Notes under the pieces: generated by a model | Database searches by the model: none | Told to the model about the DNA's origin: nothing | What the model saw: the letters and a program-made list of their open reading frames with translations, nothing else | Source of the DNA: Gammaproteobacteria bacterium | GTDB lineage: Bacteria > Pseudomonadota > Gammaproteobacteria > UBA1113 | Direction: 5' to 3' | Assembly (NCBI GenBank): GCA_021156165.1 | Contig: JAJNBM010000003.1 | Coordinates: forward strand, 1,817 to 65,816 | Length of the DNA: 64,000 bases | Translations under genes and position numbers: made by a program | In this document: positions 11,870 to 41,253 of the stretch, in pieces | Numbering within the stretch: position 1 is the stretch's first letter | Layout of the letters: each line of letters opens with the position of its first letter

Positions 11870-12877
11870 ATGACAATTCAAAACAATATAGCAGGGAAAC
11901 TGATACCTATAGGCGCTGCGCATATCATTTCACAATGTGCCATTATTGCCGCGGAACATCAACTAAATACACTTCTTTCCGATCAGCCTATTAGCATCAG
12001 AGAAATAGCTAAGAAACTAAACTTCACCGTAGAAGGAACATGGAAATTTATTCGTGTCCTAGACGCCTTAGAACTGGTAACATTAAAAGAAAATTTAATA
12101 ACTGCTTCTGAATTAACACCCCATCTAGATTATTTTCTAGGAATACACATTACTGATGGATATGCTGCAATAGAGCAGTTAGAAGCCACATTGAAGGGCA
12201 AAGAATCTTCTTGGCAAGCGCATTATGGCAAAACTTTTTATGAATATCTAAACTCCTACCCTGAAAAGTCGCAAATATTCACAGATTGGTGCCGAAAAAC
12301 AGCAAATGCCTGGCTTACGGCAGTTTTTCCCATGTACGACTTTAGCCCTTATAGCACTATCGTGGATATGGCAGGTGGTAATGGCGAATTACTATCCATG
12401 ATATTAACCAATCACCCTAAGGCACACGGGATTTTATTTGAATTACCTGCTATAATCGAGCAGGCAAAGGAGCAATGGGTAGAATCTGAGTTCACCCAAC
12501 GGCTTTCTTACTGCTCTGGAGACTTTTTTATCCACGCACCTACCGAGGGTGATCTGTATATAATCAGCAGAGCATTATTGAACTGGAATGATACAGATGC
12601 TATTCAAATCATAAATCAATGTTATAAGAATATGTCGAAGGGTAGTAAACTACTCATCATTGATTTTGTACTTCCTGAAAAAAGCCATGCTTCTTATTTC
12701 AACTTTGTTTTAAGCGATATAAATTTGTACGGCACAATGCTAGGTTCAAATCGAACAAAGCAAGAGTGGATGGGTCTTCTTCAGAAAACACAGTTTCATT
12801 CCAATTTTGTTTATAACAGTAACGAAGAAAGCATGTCAACTTTACCCATCTGCTTGTTGGAGGCGACTAAGCTATGA
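11870..12877 (+). CDS. SAM-dependent O-methyltransferase (family 2, with N-terminal dimerisation domain)
   Basis: VDMAGGNGELL (motif I), LPAII and DIxxxSRALLNW are typical of hydroxyindole/caffeate OMT-type enzymes. Confidence 0.8.
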   Translation: MTIQNNIAGKLIPIGAAHIISQCAIIAAEHQLNTLLSDQPISIREIAKKLNFTVEGTWKFIRVLDALELVTLKENLITASELTPHLDYFLGIHITDGYAAIEQLEATLKGKESSWQAHYGKTFYEYLNSYPEKSQIFTDWCRKTANAWLTAVFPMYDFSPYSTIVDMAGGNGELLSMILTNHPKAHGILFELPAIIEQAKEQWVESEFTQRLSYCSGDFFIHAPTEGDLYIISRALLNWNDTDAIQIINQCYKNMSKGSKLLIIDFVLPEKSHASYFNFVLSDINLYGTMLGSNRTKQEWMGLLQKTQFHSNFVYNSNEESMSTLPICLLEATKL

Positions 12878-13359
12878 CCGCGGGGCATATTATTGACTTG
12901 GGGATTTTAGAAAATCGTAGCTTGGACAAGTATTGGATCCAAGAAAGTGAAAATTTATGGTTTAAGCCGGTAAGGCTTGATGCAGTACATGGGTATTATA
13001 CTTGTTATTGGTATGCAAACCAAAACTGCTCTGGCGGATATCATTATCATTCAGGAGCTACGCATGGGATTAACTTAAATGGCTCTATGGTTTTTACAGA
13101 TATACATGATAAAGTCATAACTGCCAAGCCGGATCAATATTTCTATATTCCACCCGGAGTAACTCATAAAGCCGACATCATTGTTGATAATGAAAATTTT
13201 CTTTTTTATGGCTCTATTGAAGGTAGTATAATTTATTTAGATGACCACAAACAGGCACAATCGAAGCTTGATGTGTTTGATTATATTAAATTGGCAGTAG
13301 AACATTATCAAAGAAATAAACTCAATATTGCTAATTTAAGCCAAATTATAGTACAATAA
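12874..13359 (+). CDS. cupin-fold protein
   Basis: HYHSGATHG...PPGVTH metal-binding pattern of the cupin barrel. ATGA overlap with the upstream OMT suggests translational coupling. Confidence 0.5.
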   Translation: MTAGHIIDLGILENRSLDKYWIQESENLWFKPVRLDAVHGYYTCYWYANQNCSGGYHYHSGATHGINLNGSMVFTDIHDKVITAKPDQYFYIPPGVTHKADIIVDNENFLFYGSIEGSIIYLDDHKQAQSKLDVFDYIKLAVEHYQRNKLNIANLSQIIVQ

Positions 13360-13370
13360 GATAAACTGAA

Positions 13371-14603
13371 ATGAACAAAAAACTCTCGGAAAACAAAATT
13401 GACCCGGCTAAACTGCATCTTAGAGGCAATAAGCTACGCCAATTGATCAATGAAATGACGCCGCATTTTACGGAAATACGCCAAAAAATCCACATGCATC
13501 CTGAGCTAGGCTACCAAGAGAAATTAACGGCAGCTGTAGTGGCGCATGAACTAAAACAAATGGGTCTTAATGTAGTCACTGGAGTAGGCGGAACCGGCGT
13601 TGTAGCCATTATCGATTCTCGAAAACCGGGTAAAACTGTCGCCTTACGAGCCGAGCTAGATGCTCTGCCTATGACAGAAATGGCCGAATTAACTTACAAA
13701 TCCATTCATCCCGACAAAATGCACGCCTGCGGTCATGATGGACATACTGCAACCCTATTAATGGCAGCATATGCTTTGTGTAACTTTAAGAATAGCTTTA
13801 AAGGCAGGGTAAAACTTATTTTTCAACCCGCAGAGGAGGGTAGTGGGGCTGGCGCCGCAGCTATGATTCAAGAGGGTGTTTTAGACTCCCCTAAAGTAGA
13901 TGCCATATTCGCTTACCATAATTATCCTGGCTTTCCTATGGGGGCGGTGCAAACCCGGGGGGGGACCGTTCTGTCTGGAAATACTAACTTTACAATCACT
14001 GTCTATGGTAAAGGGGGGCATGCGGCAAGTCCAGATCTAAATATCAATCCTATTTTAATAGGGGCAGGTTTAATTCAAGAGATACATGAATTGAAATTAG
14101 GTAATGGCCAAATTATTAGTATTACAGAGATCCATGGCGGTTCCAGTAAAAATATTGTACCAGGTTACATTATTCTAGGTGGAACATTACGTTATATTAC
14201 GTTACTTGATAGGCAAAGCCTGAAGGAGCAATTAACCATTACTATGAATGAAGCTGTTTTGGCTTATGGTGGAGAGGCCAAGATTGAGTTCATTGATCAC
14301 TATTCGCCCACCATTAATGCTGCAGCAGAAACCCAACATGTGTTTAGAATTGCTCATCATTTGCTAGGAAATGAAAAAGTTGTCACAAAACAAAAACCTG
14401 CACGTGCTGCTGAGGATTTCTCTTTTTATCTAGAAAAAGTTCCCGGCTGTTATTTTTTCATGGGTAATGGTGAAAACAGCGCTTCTTGTCATAATTCTGA
14501 GTACGATTTTAACGATGCTTTGTTACCACACGCAGCGGAATTACTGTGTCGTATCGCTATTGATTATTTAAACCATGAAGGTCCAAACCTGCAAAAAGGA
14601 TAA
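13371..14603 (+). CDS. M20D-family amidohydrolase (aminoacylase / hippurate hydrolase-like)
   Basis: MHACGHDGHTATLL metal-binding motif. Full length is collinear with the ILR1/HipO family. Confidence 0.85.
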   Translation: MNKKLSENKIDPAKLHLRGNKLRQLINEMTPHFTEIRQKIHMHPELGYQEKLTAAVVAHELKQMGLNVVTGVGGTGVVAIIDSRKPGKTVALRAELDALPMTEMAELTYKSIHPDKMHACGHDGHTATLLMAAYALCNFKNSFKGRVKLIFQPAEEGSGAGAAAMIQEGVLDSPKVDAIFAYHNYPGFPMGAVQTRGGTVLSGNTNFTITVYGKGGHAASPDLNINPILIGAGLIQEIHELKLGNGQIISITEIHGGSSKNIVPGYIILGGTLRYITLLDRQSLKEQLTITMNEAVLAYGGEAKIEFIDHYSPTINAAAETQHVFRIAHHLLGNEKVVTKQKPARAAEDFSFYLEKVPGCYFFMGNGENSASCHNSEYDFNDALLPHAAELLCRIAIDYLNHEGPNLQKG

Positions 14604-14606
14604 TTT

Positions 14607-15476
14607 ATGATGTTTCAGAGTGTGGAAATACCTTTTAATGAAGGATATATTTATTGTGAAATTTCAGATTATGAAACAATTACACGCACAAGCAATGTGA
14701 TGTTTGTTTTGTCCGGAGGGCCAGGACTGAGCATGCTCAACTACCAAATAGATCCTGTCCTAAAGCTACGCACACAAAATCATTTGGTTTTTTTAGACCC
14801 TCCTGGTACTGGCAAAAGCCGAAAATTTACAGCAAATAACTGTAATATGGAACAATATATTGAATGCATAGAATGTATAAGACAGTTTTTTGATTTAAAA
14901 AAAATAACTTTGTTAGGGGTTTCATATGGAACCATGGTGGCTATAGGCTATAGTCTTAAATATGCCAAAGCCATTAAAAGTATGGTTCTAGTAGCCGGTG
15001 CTTCAAGTTATCATTTTCTTGAAAAGGCAAAACAAAACGTATTAGAACACGGCTCCAAAGAACAATATGATTTATGTAATAAATTGCTTTGGGAAGGAAA
15101 ATTTTCTTGCTCTGAAGAAGTGGCCAATTTTTTCTATATCTTGGGACCACTTTATTCGAAGACCCTGAAAAAAAGCGGGGGAGGGTCTATACTCAGTGAC
15201 AAATTGAAACAGTATGATTACCCATTTGCACTGTTAAATCTAGCTTTTTCAAGTGACTTTTGGCAGTTTGATTATACAAAAGACTTGAAAAATATATCTT
15301 GTCCAGTTTTAATTTTAAGTGGAAAAGAAGACTGGATCAATGATCCCTTTTTTGCAAAAATAATGGGCCGCGAAATTGAGCATTCTACAGTTCATATACT
15401 CGATAGTGGCCATTCAATTTTATATGATCAGCCAGAAGCGTTTTATAGCTTGACTTCAGCCTTTTTATCCTGCTAA
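14607..15476 (+). CDS. alpha/beta hydrolase (proline iminopeptidase-like)
   Basis: GVSYG nucleophile elbow, plus a C-terminal His in SGHSIL. Confidence 0.75.
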   Translation: MMFQSVEIPFNEGYIYCEISDYETITRTSNVMFVLSGGPGLSMLNYQIDPVLKLRTQNHLVFLDPPGTGKSRKFTANNCNMEQYIECIECIRQFFDLKKITLLGVSYGTMVAIGYSLKYAKAIKSMVLVAGASSYHFLEKAKQNVLEHGSKEQYDLCNKLLWEGKFSCSEEVANFFYILGPLYSKTLKKSGGGSILSDKLKQYDYPFALLNLAFSSDFWQFDYTKDLKNISCPVLILSGKEDWINDPFFAKIMGREIEHSTVHILDSGHSILYDQPEAFYSLTSAFLSC

Positions 15477-33119: not shown

Positions 33120-34255
33120 TGATAAATTAATGCATCACTTGGGATGTTTTTATCTGCTGATTGTGTTTTTACTAAGGTCAATACCTGATCGGCAATAGCT
33201 TGTTGTAAAGCAGCACTGCCTCCTTGTGCATTGATAGTTAAGATCACTTCATCCGGTGATACTTCCACCACCTCGATGTCTTGCACCGGCGCTAATTGTT
33301 GTAAATTATTCTTTAAGCCATCCAGAGCCGATAAATCAGCGATACCATAAACCACCACCTCTACTGGACTCACCGGTAAGGGTGCTTGTGGCACAAGGGG
33401 GGCTTGGGGCTTAACGCCTTGCGTCATCATAGATGACAATTGCCCCATGCCACCTCGCAAGGCACTGGCTGCATCATTAGCGCTAAAGGCCCAATCCACA
33501 CTGTTCTGTGGTGTTTTTAGTGTCCATTCACTCGTCCACAGAGCTGTATCTCCATCGCCTTTACTCAGATGCACCAATAAAATGCCATCATGCGTATACC
33601 GTTTCGAAGCCGCATCAATGCTAGGCCAATCCCCACCCCAAGCCTGAGCTGCACTCAAAGTCTTTAAATCGGTTAAATCGAGCAAAGGCCACTCTATATC
33701 GATAGAGGATTGTTTTACTGAAGTATCTATTGTTTTTGCATACGGCGAAGCACTGCCTAATAGTTGCTGTTGCTCCCCACTTTCTATAACCAACCAGGCG
33801 AGGAATCTCTGTGGCGGTCCAGCAGTGGGAATATTTTGGCCTTTGCTTTTTAATAGCCGGGAAATAGCGGCGGGATCGAAGTCTATTTGTAGGGTAAATG
33901 CGCTGCCGTTACTGGCGGGAATATATTGATAACTCAACATCCAATCTTGGGCATGACTTAAGCTATCTGCCCAAGCCGGATCTTTATCTATATTTTGTAT
34001 ATTAGTTAACCTGGATAATAGCTGCGCTAATGCCATTTTTAATTCATCGCTGCTGGGCTGGCTTTCAGCACTAATAATGGGCAATTGAGCACGGTATAGG
34101 CTAGAATCAGTCATAGCCACCGCCATGGCGCATAAAGAGGCCATGAATAGGACAAAAATAACTAAACTGGTATAAGCTCGTTTCATACTGCGACAATCTT
34201 GCCATAGGCGGTAATAATGTGGCCTTATTTTACACCTTTTTGAGAGTTGCGGCAA
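33107..34255 (-). CDS. exported hypothetical protein (DUF2066-like)
   Basis: The signal peptide starts at the internal Met near 34186. No catalytic motif. Confidence 0.45.
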   Translation of the reverse strand: MPQLSKRCKIRPHYYRLWQDCRSMKRAYTSLVIFVLFMASLCAMAVAMTDSSLYRAQLPIISAESQPSSDELKMALAQLLSRLTNIQNIDKDPAWADSLSHAQDWMLSYQYIPASNGSAFTLQIDFDPAAISRLLKSKGQNIPTAGPPQRFLAWLVIESGEQQQLLGSASPYAKTIDTSVKQSSIDIEWPLLDLTDLKTLSAAQAWGGDWPSIDAASKRYTHDGILLVHLSKGDGDTALWTSEWTLKTPQNSVDWAFSANDAASALRGGMGQLSSMMTQGVKPQAPLVPQAPLPVSPVEVVVYGIADLSALDGLKNNLQQLAPVQDIEVVEVSPDEVILTINAQGGSAALQQAIADQVLTLVKTQSADKNIPSDALIYQWAL

Positions 34256-34460
34256 AGTGTTCAGGAATTATACTGGTTAAGCGATATTCCCTTGCCGGGT
34301 GTGTTGATGTGAGTTAAACTATGCATAGCTATTACATTCTTCTATAGGTTGGTATGCTTAGCGATGAGAAGGGCCTGTGAAAGTACCAGCCTGCCACACT
34401 TACATACCCTAGTAAGCACCCCAACGTATAATAACTGGTAACTGGAGGGTTATTTTAGTC

Positions 34461-34727
34461 ATGTCCAATATTGTTAATATTATTTTTTCTGTTGCGTTGT
34501 TTTTAAATGCGGCCATTTTTATTCCACAAGCAGTGAGGATTTACACTACAAAATCAGCTCAAGGCGTTTCTTTATTAACTTTTGGAGGGTTATTGGTTAT
34601 TCAATTTGCTACTGTGTTACATGCCATAATGATGCGGGATTATATATTATTAATAGGCTATTTATTAAGCATATTGACTTGTGGAACGGTTGTTGTGCTT
34701 GTGCTGATAAATAAGCGTAATAACTAA
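34461..34727 (+). CDS. SemiSWEET / PQ-loop family small transporter
   Basis: 88 aa with three transmembrane segments and a PQ motif (IPQAVRIY) in TM1. Confidence 0.55.
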   Translation: MSNIVNIIFSVALFLNAAIFIPQAVRIYTTKSAQGVSLLTFGGLLVIQFATVLHAIMMRDYILLIGYLLSILTCGTVVVLVLINKRNN

Positions 34728-34818
34728 ATATTATTAAACCCTGCCTAGTAAGTCATATTCTTAGCGTTTATCTTATTTTCTTGCTTGCACACTCGCGTAA
34801 AATGAGAGTGTAAAAAAT

Positions 34819-35658
34819 TTGACAGGCTCTATTTCTTACTTTACTATCGCCGTACCAGGCATAGGTTACATTACGCTACTATATTATTTTATAAAATCGG
34901 GAGCAATTGTGAATAACAACATTAAAACTATTGTCAAAGCCTCTTTTAAAGATTGCCCTATTGAAGAGAGAAAAATTTTTCATAAATCACATTGTCTCAT
35001 GCCAATCAGTATTGGGCAAAAAATACATGAAGGAGAAAAATTTATAGCTACCATGCGCTTAGTTGAAAGAACTTTTGCACGTTGTACTATCTTGCTAGAT
35101 GATAGCGTACAGAAATATACTTTAAAGATAGAATCCGAAACAGACTTAATAACTTTGCATCAGCAGGCCATTGAAGCCGGAACAGATTGGTTGCAGCGAC
35201 AAAAAAAGTTGTTATTGGAAGAACTGGCTATACCCTGTACCGTAATAAGATGGGATGATTGGCTTGTTCTGCCTGAATATCCTGAAAATCACAAAAAGGT
35301 AGCTTCTTTATACAATGAAAATTTAATTTATAGGGATGCCATTGATAATACTATCAAAGATTTTTTAGATAGGTATGTGGCACATGGTACAAGTTCTTCT
35401 TTTGATTATGTCAAGGCACATGATTTATGCTTTACCTACCTTTTAGAAGAGTGCGCTGTCATGTCACTTTGGGTTAAAGGAGAATATGATTTTGAATTGT
35501 ATCCAAGCGGTAGAAATAAAGCCATGGCGGCCACATATGAGTTTTTTATAAAAAACCAATACCCAAACTTGCTAAAATCAGTCGGATTGCGGTTTAAAAA
35601 ATATAAGAATATAATAGACCAAACGATGGGTGAACGAGAAGAGATGGCTAAATATTAA
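34819..35658 (+). CDS. cyclodipeptide synthase (CDPS)-like protein, XYP subfamily
   Basis: PISIGQK aligns to the CDPS G-x-S catalytic loop. YLLEE gives a Y and an E four residues on, matching AlbC Y178/E182. LYPSG gives Y-P, matching AlbC Y202/P203. Confidence 0.5.
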   Translation: MTGSISYFTIAVPGIGYITLLYYFIKSGAIVNNNIKTIVKASFKDCPIEERKIFHKSHCLMPISIGQKIHEGEKFIATMRLVERTFARCTILLDDSVQKYTLKIESETDLITLHQQAIEAGTDWLQRQKKLLLEELAIPCTVIRWDDWLVLPEYPENHKKVASLYNENLIYRDAIDNTIKDFLDRYVAHGTSSSFDYVKAHDLCFTYLLEECAVMSLWVKGEYDFELYPSGRNKAMAATYEFFIKNQYPNLLKSVGLRFKKYKNIIDQTMGEREEMAKY

Positions 35659-35666
35659 GGAACTCT

Positions 35667-35710
35667 GTTTGAGTAAAGCTGCTGGGGCGACCCAGCACCT
35701 CTGCTCAAAC
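35667..35710 (+). other. long imperfect stem-loop in the CDPS-kinase intergenic region
   Basis: gtttgagtaaagctgctgggg-cgac-cccagcacctctgctcaaac, about 15 of 19 positions paired. Confidence 0.3.
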
Positions 35711-35763
35711 CAGCAACTATCCTCTTTAACGCTAAGGGTGCTCAAAGCAGAACTGTATCTGAA

Positions 35764-38700
35764 ATGCGTTCACTCAAGCGTCTTGGCGAAAAACAACGTA
35801 TTTTTTTAGAGGGAGTTATTATAATGAAAGATGATGAGACAATAAAAGCGTTAGAGTCTGAAATTTTAGAACGAGATAATATAATTCAGGACCAAAAAAT
35901 AAAAATTGATCAGCTTTTTAATATTATAAATACCATTCCTGGTAGCGTATATTGGAAAGACTTAACCGGCCGTTATCTTGGTTGTAATGACTATCAAAAA
36001 AACATGAATGGTGGCAGAGACTTAATTGGCCTAAAAGATAATGAACTGCCCTGGGCTGAAAAAGTAGCTGAAATAAGAAAAAACGATGACGCTGTTATTT
36101 CTACGGGTGCTATTCTAGAATTTGAAGAACACCCTATTTTAGCCAGCGGCGAGCGCATTACTACGTTAACCCGCAAAGCACCTCTATATAATAAGGACAA
36201 AGATATAATTGGGGTCCTTGGAATTTCTCTAGATATTAGTGGTAGAGAAAAAAGTATTCAAAATATTATTCGCGAAAAAAACGTTTTAAAAGAAGAAAAG
36301 GAATTTATAGAATCAACCTTAAGCAATATAGTCGCCGATATGCCTGGGCATGTGTATTGGAAAAATAGAGAGGGTGTTTATCTGGGGTGTAATGATAGAC
36401 AGGCAAAAAGCCTAGGGTTTAATTCGGGCAAAGGTGTCATTGGCAAGACAGACTTTGATTTATCATGGGGGTCTAGTATTGCTGAAAATTTTAGGGAAAA
36501 TGACTTGTTAGTGATGAATACGCAGTGTATGCACACCGTAGAAGAAGATACCACTATAGACGGCGTAAAGAGGACTATGTTAAGCCAAAAAACGCCTCTT
36601 AAAGATAATAAGGGTAATATTGTAGGTGTTCTTGGTATCTCTATAGAGATTACAAGGTTAAAAAACATACAAGAGGAACTTGTACGCGCCAAAGAAAAAG
36701 CCGAAGCCGCTAACAAAGCAAAAACAGAATTTGTGCAAAACATGCAGCACGATATACGCACGCCCTGTGCAGGTCTTTGGGGCGTGTTGAACATACTAGC
36801 CAAAGCAGAAGAAGATCACAACAAAAAAGAAGCGTTAGACATGGCTGCTGCAGCGAGTAAAAAGCTTTTAGAACTATGCAATGAAGCAGTTGAATTCGGT
36901 GATTTGAGCAGCAATGTAAGGCCTGTACTTGAAAAAGCGCTAAATATACGTGAATTGGCGGAATCGATAGTTGAACTTAATAAACCAGCCGCTTTTGCTA
37001 AAGATCTGCTCATTCACTTTAAGGTGGATGCTTCAATACCCGCCCAAATCCTCTGCGATGAATTTCGCTTGAGCCGTATCCTCGTTAATTTAATGGGCAA
37101 TGCGTTAAAATTCACTAATAAAGGCGAAGTCGCTTTAAATCTCAAGGCCGAAGTAGATAAAGAGACACACCGCGGCTGGTTAACCCTAGAAATAAAGGAC
37201 ACGGGTATAGGCATTCCTGCAGACAAAATTAAGACTATTTATGAGAAATTTAGTCGTGCGGTGGCTTCTAATACCAACTTGTATCCCGGAACCGGTTTAG
37301 GTTTGTATGTGGTAAAAACTTTTGTGGATGAGCTAAACGGCAACATTGAGCTTGAAAGCCGTGAAAATGAAGGAACTTCGTTTAAAGTGGGCATTCCTTT
37401 TAAAGTTCGTTGGGAGGATATGAAAAAACCAGGCGTAGAAATTGACGAATATTTCAGATCGCCGATTGATCTGACCGCTGAAGTAACACAAAACCCAGAA
37501 GCAATTTTCCAAAAGACATCTCTAGCGAAAAAGCCATTTACTCATACGCTTTTAATTATCGAAGATGATAAAACCTGCCTTTTTGCGGAAAAGAATTTAT
37601 TGTCTACTTATACCAACCAGATTGATGTTGCGGAAAATGTAGCCGAAGCCTTAGAGAAATTAGCCACTAAACGATATGATTTAGTGATTTCTGATCTGGG
37701 TTTGCCAGATGGTTCCGGTAACGATATTGTCGCCAAGGTCAAAGCCACCCCAGAATCGGCGAACTATAACACCCCTTTTGTAGCGATGACGGCCCACCAA
37801 GACGCTTTAAAACATCAACAGGCGATGAAGGCGGGTTTTACAGCAACTCACATTAAACCTTTAGGTGCCGAAAAAGCGGTAGAGCTTTTAAAGTCTTATC
37901 CAGCGCAGGAATCTGGAATCTCACCTCAGGAAGTTATTATCTCTCCTAAAGTAGAAGGTAAACCCGTAATCGATTTGGCTTTAGGAAGGCAACGGATCGC
38001 AGCCAATAATGAAGAGCAAGCGATAGAAGCGCTAGGTGTTTTATGGGAAACTCTGCAAATAGATATCCCCCTATTGCAACTTGCAGCAGAAAATAACGAC
38101 CTTGCAGGGGCAAACGCTATTTTACTTAAGATACGCGGCGGCTTATATTACACTGGTACACCCCGCTTAGAGGAAGCCTGTGAGGTGTTGCATACAGAGG
38201 TAGGGCGCGGTGTTAAAGATTTGAGAAAAATTCATAGTTTATTTTCTGCGTTTTATGATGAGGCAAAACTATTTGCGGAGCAATTTAAAGAGCTAGTGAA
38301 GGGCGTGAATGCACAAAAAGAAGCTGAACATTTAAGAATGGTAAATGAAAAGCAAAAAGCACTGTTAGAACAGGAGGCAAAATTCACTCAAATAGCCAAT
38401 CAAGTCGCACATGATATACGCTCACCACTGGCCACTTTATCTATGATCGTGGAATCCTGCACACACATTCCGGAAACCCAGCGCCTCGCTTTAAGAGAAG
38501 CAGCCATCGGCATAGAAGATATTGCCAATCACCTACTCCATGAATATAAAAAAAAAGGCTCAGATGAAGTTACAGAGCATGAGGCATGTCACCCCCTCTT
38601 AGTGTCTGCTGCTTTGCTAGAATCCTTAACCCATAAAAAATATCAATACGACAAGTGCCCCATTCAGTTTGATTGCACAATGGCCCTCAATGCCCAATTT

Positions 38701-39792
38701 GCCTTTATTAAAATACAAGCCAGTGCTTTTAAGCGGATGTTGTCTAATTTAATGAACAATGCGGTAGATGCGCTTGAAGGTCAACCTGGAACAATTCATT
38801 TACATTTAGAAGCCGACACTGAATCGGTGAAAGTACATATTCAAGATAGTGGCAAAGGCATGCCAGCGGATGTGGCAGACAAGATCTTACATAAAATCGC
38901 TATAACGCAAGGTAAAAAATTAGGTCATGGCTTAGGATTTACTCAGGTGCGGGAAGCCTTGGAGCACAATCAAGGCGAATTAGAAATTGATTCTAAACTC
39001 GGTGTAGGCACGACAATCACCCTCTCTTTTCCTAGAACCAGCGCTCCACAGTGGGTAGCGCAAGAGATAGTATTAAACCCTGATGATACCCTTATTATCT
39101 TGGATGATGATAGCTCTATACATGGTGCTTGGGACACCCGTTTTGAGCCCCTGTTAAATAAAAACCCAGAGCTGCAATTAAAGCATTTTCAATTTGGCAG
39201 GGAAACGCTGGCATTTATCCAAAGATTAACACCCGCTGAAAAAGAGCACATTTTTCTGCTCTCGGATTATGAATTATTGAATCAAGAATATAATGGCTTA
39301 ACGATCATTGCGAAAAGCGGTATACAACGCTCTATTTTAGTCACTAGCCATTATGCCGATCCAGAGGTACAAGCAGAAGCTGTAAAAGCGGGCACTAAAA
39401 TTTTACCTAAACAATTGGCCGCTGAAGTGGTAATTAAAATAAATGATAGAGATGAAGTTACATCCGAAAAAGTGTATGCCGTTCTTGTAGACGATCATCC
39501 CGGCTTTACTAAAGCATTAGCACTCTATGCTTTCGATGACGATCAAATCACAGCTGAATACAATAATCCAGAACATCTTTTAAGAGATCTGGACAAATAC
39601 GCCAAAAACACCAAAATCTATTTGGATAATAATTATGCCACTTCAAAATTAACCGGTATAGAAGTAGCTAAAAAATTACATGAACAAGGCTATACGCATT
39701 TATATATCCTATCGGGCGAGTCAGCCTTAGAGGCACCCTCTTATGTAACCGTCATTGGAAAAAACGAAATAGAACGTATAAAAGATTTGTAG
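35764..39792 (+). CDS. multi-domain hybrid sensor histidine kinase (2 PAS, two kinase cores, receiver domains)
   Basis: Two PAS blocks; H-box MQHDIRTP with HATPase NLMGNALKF...GTGLGLY; REC with LVISDLGLPDG; second H-box VAHDIRSPL with NLMNNAVDA...GHGLGF; two further REC-like domains. Confidence 0.85.
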   Translation: MRSLKRLGEKQRIFLEGVIIMKDDETIKALESEILERDNIIQDQKIKIDQLFNIINTIPGSVYWKDLTGRYLGCNDYQKNMNGGRDLIGLKDNELPWAEKVAEIRKNDDAVISTGAILEFEEHPILASGERITTLTRKAPLYNKDKDIIGVLGISLDISGREKSIQNIIREKNVLKEEKEFIESTLSNIVADMPGHVYWKNREGVYLGCNDRQAKSLGFNSGKGVIGKTDFDLSWGSSIAENFRENDLLVMNTQCMHTVEEDTTIDGVKRTMLSQKTPLKDNKGNIVGVLGISIEITRLKNIQEELVRAKEKAEAANKAKTEFVQNMQHDIRTPCAGLWGVLNILAKAEEDHNKKEALDMAAAASKKLLELCNEAVEFGDLSSNVRPVLEKALNIRELAESIVELNKPAAFAKDLLIHFKVDASIPAQILCDEFRLSRILVNLMGNALKFTNKGEVALNLKAEVDKETHRGWLTLEIKDTGIGIPADKIKTIYEKFSRAVASNTNLYPGTGLGLYVVKTFVDELNGNIELESRENEGTSFKVGIPFKVRWEDMKKPGVEIDEYFRSPIDLTAEVTQNPEAIFQKTSLAKKPFTHTLLIIEDDKTCLFAEKNLLSTYTNQIDVAENVAEALEKLATKRYDLVISDLGLPDGSGNDIVAKVKATPESANYNTPFVAMTAHQDALKHQQAMKAGFTATHIKPLGAEKAVELLKSYPAQESGISPQEVIISPKVEGKPVIDLALGRQRIAANNEEQAIEALGVLWETLQIDIPLLQLAAENNDLAGANAILLKIRGGLYYTGTPRLEEACEVLHTEVGRGVKDLRKIHSLFSAFYDEAKLFAEQFKELVKGVNAQKEAEHLRMVNEKQKALLEQEAKFTQIANQVAHDIRSPLATLSMIVESCTHIPETQRLALREAAIGIEDIANHLLHEYKKKGSDEVTEHEACHPLLVSAALLESLTHKKYQYDKCPIQFDCTMALNAQFAFIKIQASAFKRMLSNLMNNAVDALEGQPGTIHLHLEADTESVKVHIQDSGKGMPADVADKILHKIAITQGKKLGHGLGFTQVREALEHNQGELEIDSKLGVGTTITLSFPRTSAPQWVAQEIVLNPDDTLIILDDDSSIHGAWDTRFEPLLNKNPELQLKHFQFGRETLAFIQRLTPAEKEHIFLLSDYELLNQEYNGLTIIAKSGIQRSILVTSHYADPEVQAEAVKAGTKILPKQLAAEVVIKINDRDEVTSEKVYAVLVDDHPGFTKALALYAFDDDQITAEYNNPEHLLRDLDKYAKNTKIYLDNNYATSKLTGIEVAKKLHEQGYTHLYILSGESALEAPSYVTVIGKNEIERIKDL

Positions 39793-39897: not shown

Positions 39898-41253
39898 CTA
39901 CTCGTCTTCGAAAATCATCTTCCCAGACAAACCATTCTCTTCCATGATTTCACGCAAGGCTCTTAATGCCTCTACTTGGATCTGTCTGACTCGTTCACGC
40001 GTTAAACCAATTTTGCGCCCCACCTCTTCTAAGGTTGATTTTTCTTGTCCTAACAACCCAAACCTATAGGCCAGAACTTGGCCTTGCTTTTCAGGCAGCT
40101 GCGCCAACCAGGTTTCAATATTTTCCCGCAAATTATCATCTAACAACATAGTTGCAGGATCAATGTTATTAGGATCCGCCAGAGTTTCCAATAAACTCTT
40201 ATCGGTATCTTTACCTATGGGCACGTCTACTGAAGTAATTCTTTCATCCAAACTTAACATGCGTTTAACATCTTCAACTGGTTTATCCAGCATTTCGGCA
40301 ATTTCTTCTGCACTCGGGGTATGATCCAATTGTTGCGTTAATAGCCGCGCGGCACGCAAATAGACGTTCAACTCTTTCACCACATGTATCGGTAAACGAA
40401 TCGTTCGTGTTTGATTCATGATGGCACGTTCTATGGTCTGTCGGATCCACCACGTGGCATAAGTTGAAAACCGAAAGCCGCGTTCGGGGTCAAATTTTTC
40501 CACGCCGCGGATCAAACCCAAATTACCTTCTTCAATTAAGTCCAAGAGGGCTAAACCTCTGTTAATGTAGCGTCTGGCAATTTTAACCACTAAGCGCAAA
40601 TTACTTTCTATCATACGCCGCCTAGCATTGGCATCGCCTTTTAAGGCTAAACGTGCATAATAAATTTCTTCTTCCGCGCTAAGTAAAGGCGAAAATCCTA
40701 TCTCACTTAAATACATCTGCGTTGCATCTAATGCTTTTGTTGACAGATGAAATCGTCTTTTTTCACTGACTCTTGCACTTTCCTCAGCCAAATCTTCCTC
40801 TAATACCGCTTCCTCATCGAAGTCTTCAAAAATGTATTCTTCTGGATAATTTTCATCGCCTTCGTCGTCCCCTAGGATCTCCTTTTCTAAGGAAATATCC
40901 ATTTCTTCATCAAAAGAAGCATCTTCAATATCTGTCATGTATTTGCTATCCAATGAGACTGGCGTTAATTTTTTGTTTTCAATGCACTCTACTGCATTTT
41001 CTTTTTGCTTCTTTTTAGAAGAAGTGGCTTTAGTTGCAACCGCTTTGGTCTTAGCAATGACTTTTTTCACTTGAGCCACCACCTTAGTGGCCACTTTAGT
41101 GGCTACTTTCTTTTTAGGTTTCGCCTCTGCCTTAAGACTTACTTTAGAAATTTTTGTTGGCACTGATTTTTTCTTAACCGTTGCTAACGATTTCTTCTTC
41201 GTTATCATCTTTTTAACGCCCATTATTTCCTCCTTGCCCTTTCCCTTATCCAT
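39898..41253 (-). CDS. rpoS: RNA polymerase sigma factor RpoS with an approximately 95-residue Lys/Ala/Thr/Val-rich N-terminal extension
   Basis: Residues 106-451 align end to end with E. coli RpoS, including [15 protein letters not shown]. The upstream in-frame codons are KKK/AT/KV-rich. The Met at codon 11 has a perfect AAGGAGG SD. Confidence 0.85.

Follow-up and report, generated by a model that had tools for sequence, protein, structure and literature searches.

We analyzed a 64,000-nucleotide stretch of contig JAJNBM010000003.1 from an uncultured gammaproteobacterium (the window), in which three consecutive genes on the forward strand encode a small membrane protein of the SemiSWEET fold, a cyclodipeptide synthase (CDPS) and a soluble hybrid histidine kinase with tandem PAS domains (Table 1). 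An earlier note, made from the sequence without database searches, had described the first two as a CDPS-like gene of 279 codons paired with a PQ-loop protein with three transmembrane (TM) helices. Both open reading frames (ORFs) are found on the plus strand where that note had placed them, and the motifs that it quoted (PISIGQK, YLLEE and LYPSG in the CDPS, IPQAVRIY in the small protein) are all present. The pairing does recur in other genomes, but it is incomplete, as the third partner, the PAS kinase, had been overlooked. With this partner, the reading of the locus shifts from a natural product and its exporter to a signal, a channel and a sensor.

The cyclodipeptide synthase

Table 1. Features of the three-gene locus, in window coordinates.
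Feature	Position	Strand	Evidence and remarks
Three-gene block shared with the closest relative (L057)	34439..39762	+	blastn; DNA in common with L057
SemiSWEET-fold PQ-loop membrane protein, 88 aa, 3 TM helices	34461..34727	+	Pfam, profile, AlphaFold2 (AF2) model
Sigma-70-like promoter element, TTGACA-17-TACTAT	34819..34847	+	Consensus scan, 10/12 matches; 5' of CDPS gene
XYP-subfamily CDPS, cyclo(Gly-Gly)-type pockets, 249 aa	34909..35658	+	GTG start; homology to 5OCD/5MLQ
Soluble hybrid sensor kinase, 1322 aa, PAS-PAS-HisKA-HATPase-REC-degenerate Hpt-second kinase core-REC-like C-terminus	35824..39792	+	Pfam
PAS domain 1	35914..36252	+	PAS_4 match; K118 = VqmA K101 equivalent
PAS domain 2 (VqmA-like)	36313..36711	+	phmmer, Foldseek; proposed pocket K180, Q193, F223, D227, E240, S254, K256
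First kinase core: HisKA, HATPase_c	36718..37401	+	Pfam HisKA E = 4e-13, HATPase_c E = 1e-45; H309 in MQHDIRTP
REC domain	37552..37887	+	Pfam Response_reg E = 3e-20; D624
Hpt-like region, phospho-His replaced by Leu768	37900..38223	+	BLASTP to Hpt of Fluoribacter gormanii kinase, E = 9e-8
Second kinase-like core (H863, GHKL ATPase) and REC-like C-terminal region	38400..39792	+	HATPase_c_5

Delimited mechanically, the CDPS ORF runs from a TTG at 34819 to 35658 (279 aa). We rejected this TTG and placed the start at GTG 34909, since the TTG opens the −35 hexamer (TTGACA) of a sigma-70-like promoter element, indels of 5 and 7 nt in the closest relative (locus L057) disrupt the frame of the putative N-terminal extension, a GGGAG Shine–Dalgarno (SD) sequence is located at 34899–34903, 5 nt before the GTG, and the resulting 249-aa protein is 100% identical to the NCBI protein P0001 (K0R48_175, Gammaproteobacteria bacterium), which comes from the same metagenome-assembled genome (MAG). 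The gene is a CDPS gene, as had been proposed, but the length of 279 residues does not stand. The AAATTTGACA core of the promoter-like site is kept in L057, and the element presumably works as a promoter. For the kinase, ATG 35764 (an ORF of 1342 aa) was likewise rejected in favor of ATG 35824 (1322 aa), which is preceded by a conserved TTTAGAGGGAGTTAT motif (SD-ATG) common to the window and L057.

The 249-aa protein matched solved CDPS structures directly, foremost 5OCD (Fdum-CDPS; E = 1.2e-75) and 5MLQ (Nbra-CDPS; E = 2.4e-33), and more weakly 9J61, 5MLP and 6Y4B. Its identity to Fdum-CDPS is 50.7% over 225 aa. In the alignment, S34 and Q37 correspond to S37 and N40 of AlbC, Y177 and E181 to Y178 and E182, and the Y198–P199 pair to Y202–P203. 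The earlier note had called for an alignment check of these residues: none of S34, Y177, E181 and Y198 varies among 23 relatives or among 54 modules, while P199 is kept in at least 90% of the 23 relatives and is replaced in two of the 54 modules, which have Tyr-Ala instead of Tyr-Pro. The XYP subfamily is defined by a residue other than Asn at AlbC position 40 together with Tyr202–Pro203 (PMC7613923). Since the window enzyme has Gln at this position along with the conserved Ser, Tyr/Glu and Tyr-Pro residues, it belongs to the XYP subfamily, as the note had concluded, and by these homologies the gene is a genuine CDPS gene. The accompanying remark that CDPSs are rare in proteobacteria is wrong for the XYP subfamily, 65.1% of which comes from proteobacteria (PMC5816076). 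An exhaustive HMMER search returned 474 CDPS cluster representatives (50% identity clusters, E ≤ 1e-30).

The Pfam model PF16715 gave no match to the window CDPS at E ≤ 1, the NCBIfam model TIGR04539 reached 27.4 bits, below its cut-off of 45, and a precomputed PF16715 match was absent for most close CDPS relatives. In our view, these failures show that the models are not sensitive enough for this clade and do not speak against membership, and the direct homology to solved CDPSs overrides both models as arbiters of CDPS identity. The failure of PF16715 to match had been put forward as grounds for refuting the assignment; such a test would misfire, since the model misses an unambiguous CDPS homologue.

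The residues lining the two substrate pockets were read out at the published positions, AlbC 33-35-65-67-119-185-186-200 for P1 and 152-155-156-159-204-206-207 for P2 (PMC5816076). The P1 pocket of the window enzyme, LPLDWVME, is identical at all eight positions to that of the cyclo(Gly-Gly) (cGG) group, represented by CDPS 33, and the P2 pocket, TDFRSRN, agrees with NDFRSRN of CDPS 33 at six of seven, with Thr for Asn at AlbC 152 (the motif of the group is N[DE]FRSRN). CDPS 33, which is Fdum-CDPS, made 100% cyclo(Gly-Gly) in E. coli (PMC5816076, Data Set 4); it is the single characterized enzyme on which the specificity group is based, the members being Legionella and Fluoribacter enzymes (PMC5816076). 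By its pockets, the window enzyme is probably a new member of this known group, and its product is probably cGG, a prediction that we make with moderate confidence.

The PAS kinase and the SemiSWEET-fold protein

No TM segment was predicted in the window kinase (maximum Kyte–Doolittle value, KD19, of 1.19). Its Hpt-like region reads LLKIRGG where the Fluoribacter gormanii kinase has AHKIKGG. In the Legionella orthologues (≈823 aa), the Hpt histidine is intact and the protein ends there, while the window protein continues into a second kinase-like core, with a HATPase_c_5 match at residues 986–1078 of the 1342-aa ORF, and this part is homologous to the C-terminal halves of the kinases in L028, L053 and L003. 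The leucine in the Hpt-like region, the second HisKA-like/GHKL core and the REC-like domains are common to the window kinase and its closest relatives.

The AF2 model of the PAS region had a predicted local distance difference test (pLDDT) score of 95.5. In Foldseek, the ranking of the tandem-PAS model was led by generic two-PAS sensors, with LOV, DosP and FixL among the top matches, and the best single-domain match by root-mean-square deviation and identity was VqmA of Vibrio cholerae (6IDE; 1.4 Å, 24% identity). Of these matches we used only that to VqmA, after confirmation at the sequence level: with phmmer, the second PAS domain (PAS2) matched the PAS domain of BvgS (6ZJ8, E = 8.6e-8) and VqmA (6UGL/6IDE, E = 1e-5). 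Furthermore, P0206, the PAS-LuxR protein that abuts the CDPS in locus L068, is a full-length VqmA homologue (E = 3e-10) and also matches the VqmA of phage VP882. Because the output of the window protein is a histidine kinase and not a LuxR-type helix-turn-helix (HTH) domain, we regard it as the bearer of a VqmA-like PAS domain and not as a VqmA orthologue.

VqmA binds its ligand, 3,5-dimethylpyrazin-2-ol (DPO), via F67, F99 and K101, and the substitutions F67A and K101R abolish binding (bioRxiv 10.1101/2019.12.19.881847). The equivalent of K101 is Lys in all 54 CDPS-linked PAS domains (K256 in the window), and that of F67 is Phe in 36 of them, including the window (F223), so that PAS2 keeps two of the three residues with which VqmA contacts its ligand. 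In the cGG class, eight of the 12 positions homologous to the tested pocket of VqmA are invariant, compared with 19% of all columns (P = 2e-4). The PAS pocket signature also tracks the P1 class of the adjacent CDPS: KQTDFFDE..SK occurs with xPLDWVME, and LQHVSINEFYSK with xTMCWVME. Since shared inheritance is a confounder, this switch is supporting evidence and no proof. We infer that PAS2 is a candidate cyclodipeptide-binding domain.

The three-TM PQ-loop neighbor of the earlier note has turned out to have the SemiSWEET fold. The 88-aa protein scored 30.1 bits against the Pfam PQ-loop model (cut-off 22), and its family profile matched EcSemiSWEET (4X5M, E = 8e-8) and TySemiSWEET (4RNG, E = 3e-7) over the full length. 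The AF2 model (pLDDT 82) has helices at residues 2–30, 38–58 and 61–87, and its best 13 Foldseek matches are all SemiSWEET structures (TM-score 0.75–0.80). The PQ motif (P22–Q23) is invariant in the family and the gate Asp is kept (D60, equivalent to D59 of EcSemiSWEET). The sugar pocket is altered, with T15, W50 and N66 of EcSemiSWEET corresponding to N16, T51 and Y67; throughout the family, the W50 position holds Thr, Ser or Ile and the N66 position Tyr or Phe, while T15 has become an invariant Asn and the gate residue Y53 an invariant His. The NCBIfam SemiSWEET models scored the protein far below their cut-offs (NF037968, 20.1 bits against 80; NF037969, 12.6 against 100). Trp50 and Asn66 are highly conserved sugar-pocket residues in SemiSWEETs and SWEETs (PMC4309421), and because both are replaced, the 88-aa protein, despite its fold, is probably not a sugar carrier. 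It is instead a putative facilitator for the cyclodipeptide.

The genes that accompany relatives of the small protein bear on its substrate. Among 80 metagenomic relatives, 12 occur with a CDPS and/or a PAS kinase, one more (L101) with the PAS kinase alone and six with a 415–428-aa protein plus a PAS kinase. The remaining 61 are mostly on high-GC contigs, and many of them adjoin S-Me-THD (24 loci) or hydantoinase (15 loci) genes; a subfamily exclusive to CDPS loci is thereby rejected. In the high-GC loci (L085–L087, L089, L109, L116, L119 and about 20 others), the SemiSWEET gene (≈40–50% identity) is located directly 3' on the same strand, and the genes 5' of it encode S-Me-THD (PF06032/PF20906) and hydantoinase/oxoprolinase (PF01968/PF05378) proteins. 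In two further loci, which came from protein searches (L062:1820-3646 and L063:227-1798), a 60%-identical homologue is followed directly by a protein with the adenylation domain of a non-ribosomal peptide synthetase (NRPS), so that the same type of channel there adjoins another kind of peptide-forming enzyme. Small cyclic amides and peptides are the common theme of these partners, which favors a diketopiperazine as substrate but is no proof of it, and suggests that the subfamily may carry small cyclic amides in general.

The 415–428-aa protein is unrelated to the CDPS, but occupies its position (L060:5212-6498, L061:6316-7563, and also L079, L105, L108, L133, L148 and L149). It has the motifs G(D/E)xLCQIRA and SNHPQYSG, and a MatE transporter gene is found upstream in L060 and L061. 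The 428-aa representative gave no Pfam or Protein Data Bank (PDB) match. This protein may be an alternative signal synthase.

Linkage of the three genes across loci

Linkage was counted in 55 loci related to the window CDPS. A PAS-type kinase is adjacent to the CDPS in 50 of them, and four of the remaining five loci are cut off by a contig end. In 13 loci, a SemiSWEET homologue is encoded no more than about 500 bp from the CDPS, upstream in nine and downstream in four, and these loci span the entire range of CDPS identity, from 82% to 29%. Since the SemiSWEET recurs in 13 of 55 loci and on either side, its pairing with the CDPS is not due to chance. The linked kinases carry a PAS type with the motif PGHVYWK..G.YLGCN..QA, which is found once in the 64-kb window. 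In cultured Legionella their genes converge with the CDPS gene, in most MAGs they run in the same direction, and the outputs joined to the PAS domain vary among kinase, hybrid kinase and LuxR HTH (L042, L068). Sampling in the reverse direction, from PAS homologues, four of seven adjoin a clear CDPS and a fifth (L065) a weakly CDPS-like gene; the clear cases include the CDPS locus of Rickettsiella grylli and one complete SemiSWEET-CDPS-PAS-HK-REC module. By these counts, no other gene accompanies the CDPS as constantly as that of the kinase, and the unit of the module is three genes.

The association extends to single polypeptides. A 595-aa CDPS-PAS-HK fusion falls in a cluster whose 88 sequences come from JGI, ENA, Logan and NCBI. 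Among the top 150 CDPS representatives, 16 are at least 580 aa long, and all nine of these that we tested are fusions of CDPS, PAS and kinase domains. Three domain orders occur, including PAS-CDPS-PAS-HK. SemiSWEET::PAS-PAS-HK fusions are found in L035 and L151. Fusions of the two kinds, of the PAS kinase with the CDPS and with the SemiSWEET, are spread over many independent assemblies. The pairwise identities of the CDPS and of the adjacent PAS domain are correlated (r = 0.91; 0.69 for pairs below 60% identity), and in a Mantel test none of 2000 permutations reached the observed value. Paralogous modules within one genome are only ≈35% identical, and the CDPS and PAS of each module match the same foreign relatives.

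The alignment of the window with L057 by blastn was limited to 34439–35640 and 35805–39762. The flanks are unrelated, with DUF2066 and sigma factor genes in the window and phosphoenolpyruvate (PEP) synthase and RecG genes in L057. On this comparison, the three genes move as one 5.3-kb block, which in L057 has unrelated genomic surroundings. All three genes are under purifying selection, with dN/dS values of ≈0.11–0.15 relative to L057, the value for the SemiSWEET gene being 0.11. The GC content is 0.32–0.40 within the block and 0.43 in the flanks, a dip that fits horizontal acquisition; it falls to 0.33–0.37 at 34250–36750, over the SemiSWEET and CDPS genes and the beginning of the kinase gene. 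A search for repeats or mobile-element ends flanking the module gave short, weak matches only, with no flanking repeats and no tRNA gene found. Just 3' of the kinase, in convergent orientation, 39898–41253 (−) encodes a 451-aa sigma-70-family protein with regions 1.2, 2, 3 and 4; since L057 has RecG in this place, the gene is outside the mobile block.

These data bear on two alternative explanations of the locus. The first is that the three genes are functionally unrelated and adjacent by accident. The intergenic gaps of 165–181 nt and the separate promoter-like site of the CDPS gene leave a single operon unproven, as this explanation would have it, but the linkage of the PAS kinase in 50 of the 55 loci, the SemiSWEET in 13 loci in either order, the many fusions and the transposition as one block make accidental adjacency scarcely credible. 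The second is that the CDPS works with an exporter and that its product is tailored by genes ≈20 kb upstream, to which the earlier note had drawn attention as an O-methyltransferase/cupin/amidohydrolase cluster. Co-directional Methyltransf_2 (O-methyltransferase), Cupin_2, Peptidase_M20 and Abhydrolase_1 genes do exist at 11870–15476, and M20 and M17 peptidases recur near some CDPS loci. The link to the CDPS, however, found no support: the module moves without these genes, the M20 encoded in the window and the M20 linked to CDPSs in Legionella are not orthologues (E = 0.048), and ≈19 kb of housekeeping genes (riboflavin synthesis, P-type ATPase, Hda) separate the cluster from the CDPS. Tailoring by this cluster is very improbable.

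Several of the related loci show variations on the arrangement. In Rickettsiella grylli (L067:4036-7006), a 304-aa CDPS is encoded directly 5' of a PAS-HisKA gene truncated by a transposase, and the sensor may thus be inactivated; this CDPS is presumably the crystallized Rgry-CDPS (5MLP). In L068 (2158-3615), a 269-aa CDPS abuts the 215-aa VqmA-like PAS-LuxR protein P0206, which was read on 23 contigs, on an element that also has a ParA-like partition gene, a weak match to a terminase small subunit and many tiny ORFs. By analogy with the VqmA of phage VP882, which it recalls, the element may be a phage-plasmid with a synthase–receptor pair of its own. Two IMG/VR contigs classed as viral, on the label of that database, also carry a CDPS (L151:4461-8735 and L152:7989-9904); the fusion in L151 is a divergent 931-aa SemiSWEET::PAS-PAS-kinase protein, and L152 has a PAS ORF and a SemiSWEET gene on the opposite strand. 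L069 (1-8625) is a tandem array in which two CDPSs with large insertions (407+ and 489 aa) each precede a PAS kinase; in a third pair, placed after these, the PAS kinase is preceded by a 605-aa DAO-type FAD oxidoreductase. The array looks like a cassette of paralogous enzyme–sensor pairs. In L028 (8001-8746), the CDPS is split into two ORFs (74–89% aa identity) by a frameshift or an assembly error, there is no SemiSWEET ahead of it, and the 818-aa kinase is intact.

Peptidase genes recur near some modules. An M20 peptidase is encoded ≈2 kb 5' of the CDPS in cultured Legionella (L004:2593-3888 and its equivalents in L005, L014–L016, L018, L034 and L038), and an M17 aminopeptidase adjoins the module in two MAGs (L035:11641-13044 and L044). 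They could serve to break down the signal or a linear dipeptide. In six loci, a 342-aa REC-domain protein is encoded 3' of the kinase.

A proposed signaling module and its relation to known systems

We lean, if only slightly, toward the view that the three genes form a self-contained cyclodipeptide signaling module, in which the CDPS would be the source of the molecule, the SemiSWEET-like protein its carrier and the PAS kinase its sensor. The CDPS would take two aminoacyl-tRNAs, most likely two Gly-tRNAs, and release a small polar 2,5-diketopiperazine, of which cyclo(Gly-Gly) is the likeliest candidate. The 88-aa protein, presumably as a dimer, would equilibrate this molecule over the inner membrane in either direction. 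The soluble tandem-PAS kinase would bind it in the VqmA-like pocket and convert its concentration into phosphorylation. The product, its binding by the PAS domain, its transport by the SemiSWEET-like protein and its action between cells are in this scheme all predictions from comparison.

The role of exporter assigned to the small protein by the earlier note is too narrow for this scheme. SemiSWEETs are facilitators, and the SemiSWEET::kinase fusions suggest that the protein delivers the ligand to the sensor. Such fusions would be topologically coherent if the C-terminus of the SemiSWEET is cytoplasmic, as we take it to be, in keeping with the basic C-terminal tail.

A number of observations weigh against the proposed module. 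The SemiSWEET is found in only about a quarter of the modules and is therefore not essential to them. The CDPS of L. tucsonensis (L007) is truly without a PAS partner, and two of the PAS homologues (L066, L070) are without a CDPS. The equivalent of VqmA F99 is Ser in 52 of the 54 CDPS-linked PAS domains, including that of the window, and because of this the binding mode must differ from that of DPO. The covariation of CDPS and PAS is confounded, since the two are co-inherited. The P1/P2 code is, by its authors' own account, less dependable in XYP enzymes (PMC5816076), and the window P2 departs from the cGG group at AlbC 152. The window copy of the kinase has lost the Hpt histidine, and no output response regulator or DNA-binding regulator is present inside the module. 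Finally, synthase and receptor are both cytoplasmic and often one polypeptide, which would suit an intracellular messenger at least equally well.

This last point leads to the alternative that the molecule is an intracellular second messenger. The CDPS would sample charged tRNA, for example Gly-tRNA, the PAS kinase of the same cell would read the product as a report on translational or amino-acid status, and the SemiSWEET would serve as a drain or vent. Neither CDPS nor kinase has a TM segment, aminoacyl-tRNA is the substrate of CDPSs by definition of the family, and the presence of the SemiSWEET in just 13 of 55 loci is consistent with such an accessory role. Moreover, CDPS/PAS-kinase fusions such as PAS-CDPS-PAS-HK have the layout usual for second-messenger enzymes, not for autoinducer systems. 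Yet the SemiSWEET::PAS-kinase fusions (L035, L151) put the sensor at the mouth of the channel, suggesting a ligand from outside, the nearest characterized receptor, VqmA, senses an extracellular autoinducer, and CDPS and PAS-LuxR genes are paired on an apparently mobile ParA-bearing element. On balance, we consider a purely intracellular messenger unlikely. That the signal acts between cells, as true quorum sensing, is the version of the module that we prefer, as a tentative choice held with less than even confidence.

In another alternative, the locus is an ordinary natural-product locus: a diketopiperazine with an ecological role (antimicrobial or metal binding) would be exported by the SemiSWEET, and the PAS kinase would respond to an unrelated stimulus, for instance redox state, oxygen or a host signal. 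Regulators often adjoin biosynthetic genes, the exporter of the earlier note suits this explanation, and PAS domains sense many cues, as the LOV, DosP and FixL matches of the tandem-PAS model illustrate. Against it, no tailoring enzyme conserved with the CDPS was found among the related loci examined, and we know of no evident bioactivity of unmodified cGG. The covalent CDPS-PAS-kinase fusions and the class-specific switch of the PAS pocket are hard to square with an unrelated PAS ligand, and the PAS domain is without flavin or heme sensor features and keeps the ligand Lys of VqmA. This makes a plain natural-product locus decidedly improbable.

Returning to the signaling module, a wider hypothesis is possible, though somewhat doubtful. 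The Legionellales (Legionella, Fluoribacter, Tatlockia, Coxiellaceae, Rickettsiella) and some other bacteria would share a large, diversifying family of dedicated cyclodipeptide communication systems, each with a CDPS as autoinducer synthase and a VqmA-like PAS domain as receptor, coupled to a kinase or a LuxR HTH. The remodeled SemiSWEET would be a diketopiperazine channel, the first non-sugar member of its family, and the CDPS/PAS pocket classes would be orthogonal pairs of signal and receptor, part of which would reside on mobile or phage-like elements.

The proposal that diketopiperazines serve as bacterial signals is some 25 years old and mostly goes back to effects on LuxR reporters. To our knowledge, and in the searchable literature, no genetically paired diketopiperazine synthase and receptor has been established; the module offers a candidate for such a pair. 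It is also a small test set, comprising a 249-aa enzyme with a predictable product, a soluble PAS domain with a predictable pocket and an invariant Lys, and an 88-aa membrane protein. Skinnider et al. 2018 (PMC5767969) remark in a single sentence that PAS domains are recurrent near CDPS genes and may indicate quorum sensing. We found no report in the openly searchable literature of a CDPS-PAS pairing across the Legionellales, of the fusions, of the SemiSWEET link, of homology to VqmA with a conserved ligand Lys or of a class-specific pocket switch. If the proposal is true, it would explain why CDPS genes of the Legionella type are unaccompanied by tailoring enzymes and have products as plain as cGG; the VqmA receptor family would reach past Vibrio and its phages, and SemiSWEETs would gain a non-sugar class of substrate. 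Several of the hosts are human pathogens or their relatives (L. anisa, L. bozemanae, some L. pneumophila strains). Should its action be intracellular, the molecule would represent a new second messenger made from charged tRNA, which would be equally important.

Among known enzymes, the window CDPS is most like Fdum-CDPS (CDPS 33) of Fluoribacter dumoffii (5OCD), with the same catalytic residues, Gln at AlbC 40 and an identical P1 pocket, and the published cGG species are the same Legionella and Fluoribacter species as in the related loci here. It differs in having Thr and not Asn at position 152 of P2, in its host, an uncultured gammaproteobacterial MAG, and in that its product is predicted. 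The cultured Legionella loci are without a SemiSWEET and have a convergent kinase of ≈823 aa, whereas the window has a SemiSWEET and a co-directional kinase of 1322 aa.

The kinase resembles the hybrid kinases BvgS and ArcB in its HisKA-HATPase-REC-Hpt layout; the PAS domain of BvgS is the best sequence match of PAS2 in the PDB, and JGI calls several of the relatives "ArcB". In contrast to these, the window kinase has no periplasmic or TM input, and it has tandem N-terminal PAS domains, a lost Hpt histidine and an added second kinase core. The small protein shares with the SemiSWEET sugar uniporters (4X5M/4X5N, 4RNG and LbSemiSWEET, 4QNC) a length of ≈90 aa, three TM helices, the PQ hinge and the gate Asp (TM-score 0.76–0.80). 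It departs from them in the residues Thr51 and Tyr67 in place of Trp50 and Asn66, the change of T15 to Asn and of Tyr53 to His, and the partners of its subfamily are CDPS, NRPS, hydantoinase and S-Me-THD genes, not sugar genes.

As a genetic arrangement, the module recalls the Legionella Lqs system (LqsA-LqsS/LqsT-LqsR) and LuxI/LuxR, in which a synthase gene adjoins a sensor gene and paralogous pairs diversify as units; neither the proteins nor the chemistry nor the fold of the receptor is related, and the resemblance is one of analogy alone.

The nearest working analogy is the DPO–VqmA system of Vibrio cholerae and phage VP882. In both cases the receptor, a putative one in the window, is a cytoplasmic PAS protein, and DPO is, like a diketopiperazine, a small six-membered diaza-heterocycle derived from amino acids. 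The PAS domains are homologous in sequence and fold, with Lys101 invariant and Phe67 largely kept, and the CDPS-linked sensors of L042 and L068 have the exact architecture of VqmA, PAS plus LuxR-HTH. DPO, however, arises from threonine dehydrogenase chemistry, whereas here a gene for a tRNA-dependent CDPS adjoins that of the putative receptor. The window PAS drives a hybrid histidine kinase and not an HTH domain, with F99 replaced by Ser and Y36 by Gln, and its binding of a cyclodipeptide is predicted. Finally, the CDPS–PAS module can be accompanied by a dedicated channel of the SemiSWEET type.

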